Assembly (NCBI GenBank): GCA_036001065.1 | Contig: DASYUQ010000115.1 | Span: 1,297-65,296, forward strand | DNA from: Candidatus Methylomirabilota bacterium | GTDB taxonomy: Bacteria; Methylomirabilota; Methylomirabilia; Rokubacteriales; CSP1-6 | Length of the DNA stretch: 64,000 bases | Direction of reading: 5' to 3' | Shown: positions 6,355 through 8,265 of the stretch, one piece after another | Layout: the number at the start of each line of letters is the position of its first letter | How positions within the stretch are numbered: position 1 is the first letter of the stretch | The notes under the pieces: generated by a model | The model's input: only the letters and a program-made list of their open reading frames with translations | What the model was told of the DNA's origin: nothing | Databases searched by the model: none | Made by a program: the position numbers and the translations under genes

Positions 6355-6597
6355 TCACGGAACGACGACGTCGCGCTCGATGGGATCGATCTGGACGCCG
6401 AGCTTCTTAAGCCAGGCCACACCCTGCTGAAGCCTCTCTTCGGGCGCGTCCATCTCCAGCGCCACCCAGCCGTAGTCCGCCTTCACGTCGGCGCGCCGGA
6501 TGTTGATCACGATGTCGAAGTCCTTCACGAGCCGGTAGAGGATGGGCTCCTGGATCAGGTGCGCCGGAAACGTGAGGCGGACACGCATGCGGGCCAT
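6355..6597 (-). CDS. NIL-domain (ferredoxin-like, MetN C-terminal-like) small protein
   Basis: 80 aa with a LIQEPILYRLVKDFDIVINIRRADVK..GWVALEM pattern resembling the NIL domain found in MetN and in sulfur-amino-acid accessory proteins. Confidence 0.5.
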   Translation of the reverse strand: MARMRVRLTFPAHLIQEPILYRLVKDFDIVINIRRADVKADYGWVALEMDAPEERLQQGVAWLKKLGVQIDPIERDVVVP

Positions 6598-6609
6598 GGC
6601 CGCACCGGG

Positions 6610-6888
6610 TCAGCGCCCTCCGGCAATGGCGGGCACGATCGAGACGGTATCGCCGTCCTTGAGGGCCGTCTTCTTGCCCTGGATGAACCGGATGTCTTCC
6701 TCGTTCACGTAGATGTTGATGAAGCGCCTCAGCTCTCCGCTGTCGTCCACCAGCCGTTCCCGTAGCCCGGGGAACTGGCGCTCCAGGTCGTCCACCACCT
6801 CCGCGACGGACTCCCCCTTGGCGCGGACCTCGGCGTTGCCCTTCGTGATGGAGCGGAGTGGAGTCGGGATACGCACCGTCACCGGCAT
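6610..6888 (-). CDS. MoaD/ThiS/CysO-type sulfur-carrier protein (C-terminal GG followed by one extra Arg)
   Basis: 92-aa beta-grasp protein ending ...SIVPAIAGGR. It overlaps the stop of the upstream ThrC-like gene by 1 nt. Confidence 0.65.
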   Translation of the reverse strand: MPVTVRIPTPLRSITKGNAEVRAKGESVAEVVDDLERQFPGLRERLVDDSGELRRFINIYVNEEDIRFIQGKKTALKDGDTVSIVPAIAGGR

Positions 6889-8147
6889 CAGTGTTCCTCC
6901 TGGGCTCCGTGGGACTTGAGGTCGGTCAGCGCCCGGTCGAACGCCGAGAGCGTCGGCCGGATCTTTACGTGGGTCTCGAGCCGCTCGTACAGCGAGTCGG
7001 GGGTCTTGAGCCCGTTGCCCGTGATGCAGATGACCACCGACTCGTCGCGGGGAATCACGCCCTGCTCGATCAGCTTCTTCGTCGTGGCCACCGTCACGCC
7101 GCCGGCCGTCTCGGTGAAGATCCCCTCGGTACGCGCGAGCAGCAGCATGCCCTCGACGATCTCCGGGTCCGTCGCGTGCTCGCCGTGACCGCCCGACTCC
7201 TTGACGGTCCGGTAGGCGTAGTAGCCGTCGGCGGGATTGCCGATGGCCAGCGACTTGGCGATCGTGTTGGGCCGAACCGGCACCAGCACGTCGGTGTCGT
7301 TCTTGATCATGGTGACGATCGGTCCGCAGCCGAGGGCCTGGGCGGCGTGGATCCTGGTGTCGACGGGGCCGTCGATGAGCCCCAGCATCTTCATCTCCTT
7401 GATGGCCTTCCAGATCTTGGTGATGAGCGAGCCGCCGGCGCAGGGGACGACGATATGTTGCGGCGGGCGCCAGCCGAGTTGTTCGATGATCTCGAATCCG
7501 TAGCTCTTCGACCCTTCAGAATAGTAGGGCCGGAAGTTCACGTTCACGAACGCCCAGCGGTACTTGTCGGCGATCTCCGAGCAGAGGCGGTTGACCTCGT
7601 CGTACGTGCCCTCCACGGCCACCAGTGTCGGGTTGTAGACCAGCGTGGCCAGGACCTTGCCCGGCTCCAGGTCGGCCGGGATGAAGATGTAGGACTTGAG
7701 CCGCCCCTCGGCGGCATGCGCCGCAACGGAGTTCGCCAAGTTCCCCGTGGAGGCGCAGGCCACGGTGTCGAAGCCGAACTCCTTGGCCTTGGTCACCGCG
7801 ACGGCCACGACGCGGTCCTTGAAGGACCAGGTGGGGTGACAGACGGAGTCGTTCTTGATCCAGATCTCCCGACAGCCCAGTTCGTCGGCCAGGTTGTTGG
7901 CCCGGATCAGAGGCGTGAAGCCGACGTGATGGCCCACCGCCACGTCGCCCTCGATCGGCAGCAGCGCCTGGTACCGCCACATGCTCGGTGGCCCCGCGGC
8001 GATGGAGGCCCGGGTGACCACGCCCTTGAGCGCCTCGTATTGATAGTCGACTTCCAGAGGGCCGAAGCAGAACTCGCAGACGTGGACGGGGGCCGAAGGA
8101 TAGCGGCGGCCGCACTCGCGGCACTTCAGGCCTTTCAGCTTCTCCAT
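6888..8147 (-). CDS. Threonine synthase-like PLP enzyme with N-terminal zinc ribbon (ThrC family)
   Basis: Carries the PTWSFKDR lysine motif of ThrC-type fold-II PLP enzymes and an N-terminal CRECG...CEFC zinc ribbon. The start was placed at MEKLKGLKC (ATG 8145-8147) because the 19 upstream codons of the listed ORF have low GC3. Its true function may be sulfur-carrier-dependent (see findings). Confidence 0.7.
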   Translation of the reverse strand: MEKLKGLKCRECGRRYPSAPVHVCEFCFGPLEVDYQYEALKGVVTRASIAAGPPSMWRYQALLPIEGDVAVGHHVGFTPLIRANNLADELGCREIWIKNDSVCHPTWSFKDRVVAVAVTKAKEFGFDTVACASTGNLANSVAAHAAEGRLKSYIFIPADLEPGKVLATLVYNPTLVAVEGTYDEVNRLCSEIADKYRWAFVNVNFRPYYSEGSKSYGFEIIEQLGWRPPQHIVVPCAGGSLITKIWKAIKEMKMLGLIDGPVDTRIHAAQALGCGPIVTMIKNDTDVLVPVRPNTIAKSLAIGNPADGYYAYRTVKESGGHGEHATDPEIVEGMLLLARTEGIFTETAGGVTVATTKKLIEQGVIPRDESVVICITGNGLKTPDSLYERLETHVKIRPTLSAFDRALTDLKSHGAQEEH

Positions 8148-8265
8148 GAGCACGTCTCCATCGGTAGGGGAATTGAGCCCCGAGTTGTACTGCACCGACA
8201 GCAAGACATTTCGCTTAGTTAACAGTGAACAGCGGAGGAAGTCAATTGCAGTATGATCCGACCCC

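Follow-up and report, generated by a model that had tools for sequence, protein, structure and literature searches.

In the CysM/CysO/Mec+/MoeZ system of Mycobacterium tuberculosis, an E1-made thiocarboxylate on a small carrier is used by a fold-type II pyridoxal phosphate (PLP) enzyme acting on a phosphorylated hydroxy-amino acid, and a JAMM hydrolase frees the product; to our knowledge, no NIL-domain protein takes part in it. A thiocarboxylate pathway for methionine, HcyS/HcyF/HcyD/MetY, with homocysteine as its end product, has reportedly been described in Wolinella succinogenes by Krishnamoorthy and Begley. Its carrier HcyS is said to have an extra residue past the Gly-Gly that a metalloprotease must remove before activation, as would be the case for the carrier presented here, while its PLP enzyme is reportedly MetY, which is of fold type I and uses O-acetylhomoserine, and not a homologue of threonine synthase (ThrC); no NIL protein is reported for it either. 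The closest precedent is MetM/MetO of the actinomycete Streptomyces albulus (Hasebe et al. 2024, Appl Environ Microbiol 90:e01247-24). As summarised in GapMind 2026 and in PMC12172450, a ThrC homologue was shown there to convert O-phosphohomoserine into homocysteine with MetO thiocarboxylate as the sulfur donor, and the system depends on an E1 of the MoeZ type and a JAMM hydrolase of the Mec type, whose genes lie elsewhere. Here we analyze a 64-kb stretch of DNA from a Candidatus Methylomirabilota bacterium (contig DASYUQ010000115.1; the whole stretch is called the window), in which three closely packed minus-strand open reading frames (ORFs) at 6355-8204 encode a ThrC-like enzyme, a sulfur carrier and a NIL-domain protein. 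Working in silico, we read them as a MetM/MetO-type operon for homocysteine (methionine) biosynthesis, with a probability of roughly three in four.

The first gene encodes a MetM-like PLP enzyme of 419 amino acids (6888..8147, minus strand; PF00291, 1.3e-67), the second a MetO/CysO-like beta-grasp carrier of the ThiS/MoaD family with 92 amino acids (6610..6888, minus strand; PF02597, 7.8e-18), and the third a stand-alone NIL-domain protein of 80 amino acids (6355..6597, minus strand; PF09383, 1.6e-15, 57.2 bits against a gathering threshold of 24). These ORFs and Pfam matches bear out the trio named in a first reading of the bare sequence (the original prediction), including the size and domain of the NIL protein. 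The same reading had placed the 5' end of the enzyme gene at 8204, which is where the ORF begins if counted from its first TTG (6888..8204); we corrected this to the ATG at 8147, which is the start in public gene calls, is backed by the N-termini of homologues and by P0001 (419 amino acids, 100% identity), and has GGAGA positioned 8 nt ahead of it. The proposed translational coupling was confirmed, with the carrier ATG overlapping the enzyme TGA (cacTGATGccg) and an AGGAGG Shine-Dalgarno sequence 7 nt 5' of it, and the NIL ORF begins 12 nt past the carrier stop. The window has a G+C content of about 70%, its proteins are identical or nearly identical to those of Methylomirabilota (Rokubacteria) metagenome-assembled genomes (MAGs), and a tblastn search found no paralogues of the three operon proteins in it.

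The ThrC-like enzyme and its clade

The enzyme has the SFKDR motif, with an invariant K110, and an N-terminal zinc ribbon of four invariant or nearly invariant cysteines (C9, C12, C24 and C27), two features that had been rightly picked out from the sequence at the start. Over the catalytic domain it is 36-39% identical (E 1e-47 to 1e-54) to the solved ThrCs used for comparison, those of B. subtilis (6cgq), Aquifex (2zsj), T. thermophilus (1uim) and M. tuberculosis (2d1f). It is closer to a homologue from Nonomuraea gerenzanensis whose gene is linked to a riboswitch (about 50% identity). We compared a profile of full-length relatives with one genome per species of the GTDB, which matched more than 600 stretches, and kept the best 80; the enzymes of these 80 loci, found in other phyla, are 55-77% identical to that of the window. 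The loci include Methylomirabilota, Nitrospirota, Planctomycetota, Chloroflexota, Cyanobacteria, Actinomycetota and Thermodesulfobacteriota, as well as Verrucomicrobiota, Acidobacteriota, Aquificota, Elusimicrobiota, Poribacteria and others, more than 15 phyla in total.

Five active-site loops common to the window enzyme, the 80 loci and the Nonomuraea enzyme are consistently unlike those of the solved ThrCs. In the first, NPTGSFKDRGM of the solved enzymes is replaced by xPTxSFKDRVV in the clade (HPTWSFKDRVV in the window), and in the second ASTGNT(S/A)A (matching motif ASTGNTSA) gives way to ASTGNLA(N/G), which reads ASTGNLAN in the window. The third loop, VN-SVNP(Y/H)R(L/I)EGQKT in the solved ThrCs (VN-SVNPYRLEGQKT), presumably contributes phosphate-binding residues in the T. 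thermophilus enzyme; its counterpart in the clade is VNxN(L/I/F)RP(Y/F)Y(A/S)EGSK(T/S), with VNVNFRPYYSEGSKS in the window. The fourth changes from ATAIRIGNPASW to AKSLAIGNPADG (AKSLAIGNPADGYY in the window) and the fifth from EP(A/G)SAA (EPASAA) to ETAGG(V/T)T (ETAGGVT). A neighbour-joining tree was built from 118 sequences, and in 100 of 100 bootstraps no canonical-type ThrC fell within the smallest clade that holds the window and Nonomuraea enzymes. The enzyme thus shares with canonical ThrC its fold, its PLP-lysine motif and probably its substrate, and differs from it in the extra N-terminal zinc ribbon, the five changed loops, the separate clade and, as regards that clade, the genomic context and regulation. 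According to this comparison of sequences, it is not a canonical threonine synthase and belongs to a distinct clade spread over more than 15 phyla; it neither clusters within the authentic ThrCs nor keeps all of their residues.

Among more distant ThrC-like proteins, P0332, P0345 and P0388 and also P0352, P0363 and P0364 carry an extra LeuA allosteric or PadR DNA-binding domain, the LeuA type having about 610-620 amino acids and the PadR type about 490. We judged these fusion partners irrelevant to the clade of the window enzyme. Separately, P0339 consists of a ThiF domain and a MetM-like PLP domain, as a real fusion or a merged gene call.

The carrier, the related loci and their SAM riboswitches

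To place neighbouring genes, the ORFs of the 80 best-scoring loci were called mechanically and clustered all-against-all, and the clusters were positioned relative to the enzyme gene; some ORF starts were over-extended in high-GC genomes, and therefore positions were judged by stop codons. The statistics drawn from these loci ignore phylogenetic non-independence, and neighbours were counted in the 72 loci whose sequence extends 1.5 kb or more downstream. A CysO/MetO-like carrier lies directly after the enzyme gene in 65 of the 72, a NIL gene is found in 39, and a ThiF-type E1 and a JAMM peptidase are encoded nearby in 26 and 16, respectively. As to whether the trio recurs in other genomes, the pairing of enzyme and carrier held broadly and the NIL gene accompanied them in just over half of the loci. 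Pfam searches on representatives confirmed ThiF, ThiF plus rhodanese, Prok-JAB, ThiS plus NIL and class V aminotransferase proteins. The order is enzyme, carrier, NIL in Methylomirabilota, Nitrospirota and Planctomycetota and enzyme, NIL, carrier in Chloroflexota, and the cyanobacterial loci have the carrier and no NIL gene.

Some loci have arrangements of their own. Eight from Nitrospirota (L023, L029, L030, L039, L041, L042, L046 and L058) have two ThiF paralogues on either side of the trio, in the order E1, enzyme, carrier, NIL, E1, followed in six of them by a JAMM gene, the contigs of L029 and L058 ending about 1.8 kb past the enzyme gene. In L022, a 355-amino-acid ORF (9226-10293) clusters with ThiF proteins and matches the carrier at its N-terminus; it is possibly a carrier-E1 fusion, or else an ORF-calling artefact in a high-GC actinobacterial MAG. 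The MetM-like gene of L059 (Acidimicrobiia) comes with a SAM riboswitch and a carrier, and that of L033 (Aquificaceae) stands without an adjacent carrier.

Regarding regulation, we found a SAM-I riboswitch (S-adenosylmethionine-sensing; RF00162) directly 5' of the enzyme gene in nine loci with Rfam (L007, L050, L054, L059, L085, L012, L026, L031 and L075), at 65-96 bits against a cut-off of 44.4. A custom SAM-I covariance model, R1, built from five of the Rfam-positive loci, gave 31 hits in 1.1 Mb, every one of them on the gene strand just upstream of the enzyme gene; they fall in 30 of the 80 genome loci and in Nonomuraea, and four new hits re-checked with Rfam were all confirmed. In N. gerenzanensis the order is SAM riboswitch, enzyme and a 91-amino-acid carrier ending AVAGG, with no NIL gene, a layout that corresponds to the one published for metM-metO of S. 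albulus as far as the descriptions of it that we drew on go. Measured against those same descriptions, the operon of the window (from a Methylomirabilota organism and not an actinomycete) likewise has a ThrC-homologous PLP enzyme adjoining a ThiS/MoaD-type carrier, and differs by having no SAM riboswitch, a carrier that ends GG-R instead of GG, and an extra NIL gene. The riboswitch concerns regulation and not catalysis, and its presence differs from one member of the clade to another.

The carrier of the window ends ...PAIAGGR, that is, with Gly-Gly and one extra arginine, just as had been read from the sequence, and this arginine would have to be removed before activation. With M. tuberculosis CysO (3dwg_C) it shares 54% identity (E 2e-25 by phmmer, 2e-35 by pairwise BLASTP), so that its beta-grasp fold needs no separate prediction; its top structural relative is 4n6e_B (E 1.5e-25), and it is 49% identical to the Nonomuraea carrier. 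With such a likeness to CysO, the module might be thought to make cysteine, with a ThrC-like enzyme acting on O-phosphoserine as CysM does with CysO. Two loci of Candidatus Acidulodesulfobacterium, L086 (4660-9034) and L087 (987-5361), bear on this. They hold a full cluster in the order PALP enzyme of 414 amino acids, carrier-NIL fusion, ThiF, TusA, second PALP enzyme and JAMM, and the second PALP enzyme, at 306-336 amino acids, is about the size of M. tuberculosis CysM. With the carrier-NIL gene between the two PLP enzymes, homocysteine and cysteine may both be made with a single carrier in these genomes, and therefore carriers of the window type may serve cysteine synthesis too. However, the partner enzyme in the window is of the ThrC type with a zinc ribbon, not of the CysK/CysM type, and the best cysteine synthase model for it (cysteine synthase A, NF007989) gives 33 bits against a cut-off of 387. 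Furthermore, the riboswitches upstream of its relatives point to methionine, and the activity published for the enzyme family, according to GapMind 2026, is on O-phosphohomoserine. We thus regard cysteine as a very improbable product of the window operon and homocysteine as the predicted one.

The carrier could also be a SAMP-like protein modifier, or a sulfur source for some other thio-metabolite or cofactor with a specialised product of the PLP enzyme. It scores just over the SAMP1 model NF041918 (62.7 bits against 60) and also matches the archaeal MoaD model TIGR01687 (51.5 bits); in addition, related carriers act in 2-thiosugar synthesis in actinomycetes, and the top structural relative of the window carrier is 4n6e_B, as noted above. 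Yet the gene order is kept in more than 15 phyla, autotrophs among them, and under SAM riboswitches, which makes a lineage-specific secondary metabolite unfitting, and we found neither E2/E3-like genes nor biosynthetic cluster genes near the operon. This role, too, is one to which we give very little weight.

Several findings count against the homocysteine reading. The enzyme passes TIGR00260, the thrC equivalog model, with 274.6 bits against a cut-off of 167.1. The remaining thrC models leave it under their cut-offs (NF006050, for example, at 268.6 against 303), and TIGR00260 evidently does not separate the two clades; because it is passed nevertheless, the annotation as 'threonine synthase' is universal, and this was the name in every public record that we examined. 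No carrier adjoins the enzyme gene in 7 of the 72 loci. As the original prediction had noted of E1 and JAMM in the window, tblastn with 50 E1/JAMM queries from related loci found no ThiF/E1 or JAMM gene in the 64 kb, nor did Pfam scans of 58 window ORFs or the precomputed Pfam assignments for the called genes of the closest public contigs. Similarly, no riboswitch upstream of the operon reached the Rfam gathering threshold, over 6000-8400 none appeared with Rfam up to E = 10, and R1 gave no hit. Membership in MetM/MetO is judged through the Nonomuraea proxy and second-hand descriptions of the S. albulus system. Finally, a carrier-linked cyanobacterial homologue, with 51.6% identity to MetM for the enzyme and 47% to MetO for the carrier, was reported to show threonine synthase and threonine deaminase activity in vitro and not to raise methionine in vivo (PMC12172450).

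Hence, one could argue for a true threonine synthase, perhaps a bifunctional enzyme with deaminase activity, whose linkage to the carrier and the NIL protein is regulatory or incidental. Besides the TIGR00260 score and the cyanobacterial activities, such a role would agree with the full catalytic-domain alignment to the solved ThrCs, in which the PLP lysine and the STGN loop are kept. Against it stand the clade-specific changes in the five loops, including the VN-SVNPYRLEGQKT loop, and the complete bootstrap separation in the tree. The leaders found 5' of the gene in 31 loci are SAM riboswitches and not threonine-related, the gene is mostly followed by a carrier, with E1 and JAMM genes nearby in part of the loci, and a second thrC, of the canonical kind, is reported to be retained in cyanobacteria (PMC12172450). 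We therefore consider a threonine synthase unlikely; it is the main rival all the same, cysteine synthesis and a modifier or secondary-metabolite role being less likely. The homocysteine reading is supported by four independent lines, namely the clade, the carrier context, the SAM-I riboswitches and the CysO-like carrier, and to this extent the view that the window encodes a carrier-dependent homocysteine synthase and not a plain ThrC has held up in silico. The precedent of MetM/MetO had also been named correctly, the pathway having been described in 2024.

According to the homocysteine reading, the carrier would be made as a 92-amino-acid precursor ending Gly-Gly-Arg, and its terminal arginine would be trimmed by a peptidase encoded elsewhere (of the JAMM/Mec type in related genomes). 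A ThiF/MoeZ-type E1, also encoded elsewhere and perhaps shared with the thiS-thiG system of the same window, would then adenylate the Gly-Gly carboxylate and lead to the thiocarboxylate. The PLP enzyme would eliminate phosphate from O-phosphohomoserine, and the carrier thiocarboxylate would attack C-gamma, where in ThrC it is water that attacks C-beta. Hydrolysis of the resulting carrier-homocysteine adduct would release free homocysteine.

The NIL protein and carrier-NIL fusions

The AlphaFold model of the NIL protein (pLDDT confidence score 87.4) shows a beta-alpha-beta-beta-alpha-beta arrangement. Its top Foldseek matches are the C2 domain of MetN, the ATPase of the methionine ABC importer, in 3tui, 3dhw and 3dhx, with TM-scores of 0.79-0.85 and a root-mean-square deviation of about 1 Å, and ACT domains rank next after E. 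coli MetN C2. N32 of the window protein aligns with N295 of MetN, the asparagine of the N-I-L motif, and in MetN the N295A mutation lowers L-methionine binding to undetectable levels (PMC6233128). The residue is invariant in 27 Rokubacterial sequences and is the commonest one in its column across phyla. Within Rokubacteria the conservation of the whole protein is 79-100%, and it can still be recognised across phyla. We found no cysteine in the window protein and none in 30 of 40 related NIL proteins. An Fe-S or persulfide role was accordingly rejected, given that cysteine is absent from the window protein and not conserved.

In six loci (L007, L008, L011, L012, L017 and L037), NIL forms the C-terminal half of a fusion with the carrier. 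These fusion proteins have 171-190 amino acids and Pfam matches to ThiS plus NIL; their N-terminal carrier half ends AIAGG, and a linker of 3-20 residues follows. A JAMM gene lies nearby in all six loci and an E1 in five. After a search with one of the fusions, we obtained at least 120 clusters at 90% identity (P0428-P0547), all of them ThiS plus NIL, with 167-189 amino acids. The genomic contexts L086-L088, of which L086 and L087 share one fusion protein (P0505), have a PLP enzyme of 414-419 amino acids directly upstream in all three cases. Since the Gly-Gly carboxylate must be free for adenylation, such fusions must be cleaved after the Gly-Gly.

The presence of NIL goes together with two other features of the loci: residues follow the Gly-Gly in 23 of 36 carriers from NIL loci against 5 of 26 from loci without NIL (extensions and fusions counted together; Fisher p = 0.0007), and the SAM riboswitch is rarer in NIL loci, at 10 of 39 against 18 of 33 (Fisher p = 0.016), both tests ignoring phylogeny. 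This limit belongs with the points gathered above, as does the replacement of N32 by Asp or Ser in some lineages.

Compared with the C2 domain of MetN, the NIL protein has the same Pfam family, the same fold (TM-score 0.84), the same asparagine and a tie to methionine homeostasis; it differs in standing free or fused to a carrier instead of within an ABC transporter ATPase, and the identity is about 23%. The NIL-ferredoxins MA1822 and DvMF_0262 of the DUF39 homocysteine pathway (PMC5764234) are likewise cases in which NIL is genetically tied to homocysteine synthesis. In contrast to the MA1822 type, however, the window protein has neither a ferredoxin domain nor a cysteine, and the DUF39 pathway proceeds from aspartate semialdehyde, while the route of the window is predicted to go via O-phosphohomoserine. 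No DUF39 or COG2122 neighbour was present among the called genes of the closest public contigs. Our literature search, which did not take in the primary MetM/MetO paper, found no paper that brings a NIL domain and a sulfur carrier together, and the step list of the pathway in GapMind 2026 has no NIL component.

From the sequence relationships and the structural model, we predict that the NIL protein is an ACT-like subunit of the carrier system that binds a ligand and has an accessory or regulatory role. A more specific proposal, which we put forward tentatively, is that it binds methionine or a related metabolite (homocysteine or SAM) and exerts post-translational feedback on the maturation, activation or use of the carrier, as a substitute for the SAM riboswitch of other lineages. 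Put more loosely, as an amino-acid-like ligand whose binding modulates the system or the processing of the precursor, the idea remains one that we would sooner bet against than for. More speculative still, and on balance doubtful, is that NIL represents an unrecognised fourth component of the pathway: a sensor of methionine, homocysteine or SAM, built either as a pro-domain of the carrier that JAMM releases or as a separate subunit, which would gate the carrier by feedback. As part of this same doubtful proposal, NIL feedback would do in lineages such as Methylomirabilota, Nitrospirota and Chloroflexota what the SAM riboswitch does elsewhere.

Other features of the window and meaning

The window encodes a second ubiquitin-like sulfur-carrier system, a thiamine thiazole operon on the minus strand (50015-52990). 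It starts with a thiamine pyrophosphate riboswitch (52889-52990; RF00059, 56.7 bits), followed by thiS (52638-52862, 74 amino acids), thiG (51851-52633) and a gene for a ThiO-like FAD oxidase (50015-51352), all on the minus strand. No ThiF-type E1 was found near thiS-thiG in the window, so that this system too is without an E1 of its own there, which fits a shared E1 encoded elsewhere. An E1 shared by several carriers is known in actinomycetes. A weak match to the E1/JAMM queries at 24697-24993 (E 2e-5) was discarded; it adjoins TldD/PmbA-like genes. Two pairs of genes for such metallopeptidase-like proteins are present, one on the plus strand (23025-24602 and 24879-26567), which matches the model of the C-terminal domain only, and one on the minus strand (45009-46355 and 46352-47797).

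On the 5' side of the operon, a divergent intergenic region of 118 nt (8148..8265, minus strand) would hold the promoter and the 5' leader. A candidate promoter, TTGACT-17-TTAACT, had been spotted by eye 5' of 8147; the consensus promoter scan gave it no support, and therefore we claim no promoter there. Beyond this region, a predicted protein of 635 amino acids is encoded divergently (8266-10173, plus strand); it has no Pfam match, looks very hydrophobic by eye, and keeps the same position in the closest public contigs L001, L002 and L004. On the 3' side of the NIL gene, the intergenic region 6130..6354 (minus strand) contains a long GC-rich inverted repeat, GGCGGCGGGGGCGGGCGGGGCCC ... GGCCCCGCCCACCCCCGCCGCC. 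When folded, 6130-6354 gives a minimum free energy of -147 kcal/mol (z = -2.36 against shuffles), and no T-run terminator was detected in it; the repeat could close the three-gene unit in the manner of a terminator, or it could be a repeat element.

The next gene on this side encodes a class I aminotransferase, which starts 285 nt beyond the NIL stop in public gene calls and falls under every NCBIfam cut-off. The original prediction had taken the downstream genes to be all methionine-related and had counted a methionine-salvage neighbourhood as support. This holds for the methylthioadenosine phosphorylase (MTAP), whose identity is confirmed by TIGR01694 (317 bits, cut-off 275). It does not extend to the aminotransferase, to MtaB, which is a tRNA methylthiotransferase, or to RlmN and a DUF4147/MOFRL protein, which intervene. 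We downgraded the neighbourhood as evidence, and the case for homocysteine does not depend on it; moreover, these downstream genes do not recur in the 80 loci.

Taken together, the core of the operon is a new member of the MetM/MetO pathway described in 2024, and its NIL accessory does not figure in the accounts of that pathway on which we relied. New with respect to those accounts are the breadth of the clade, the frequent control by SAM riboswitches, the NIL partner, the carrier-NIL fusions and the C-terminal extensions of the carriers. Public names hide most of this. Relatives of the NIL protein are called 'FeS-binding protein', 'ABC-type methionine transport system ATPase subunit' or 'L-aspartate semialdehyde sulfurtransferase ferredoxin', of which the ferredoxin and FeS-binding names are misannotations for the protein of the window, and the carrier-NIL fusions appear as 'MoaD family protein', 'molybdopterin synthase sulfur carrier subunit' or hypothetical proteins. 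Misled by such names and by that of the enzyme, metabolic reconstructions of Methylomirabilota, Nitrospirota, Chloroflexota, Planctomycetota and other phyla would therefore miss a methionine route, and the phyla affected are abundant in soil and groundwater.

Our results suggest that MetM/MetO is a widespread route of homocysteine synthesis, regulated by SAM in many lineages, and no peculiarity of Streptomyces. The lineages of L033 and L059, Aquificae and Acidimicrobiia, were listed by Price et al. 2018 (PMC5764234) as being without a known homocysteine pathway, and the route may fill these gaps. The link to the carrier gives a concrete starting point for testing the function of the NIL domain beyond ABC transporters. 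Bacterial sulfur carriers made as fusion precursors that need processing by JAMM are also relevant to the evolution of ubiquitin-like systems and, if the reading of NIL as a fourth component is true, they would represent a bacterial ubiquitin-like fusion precursor with metabolically gated processing.

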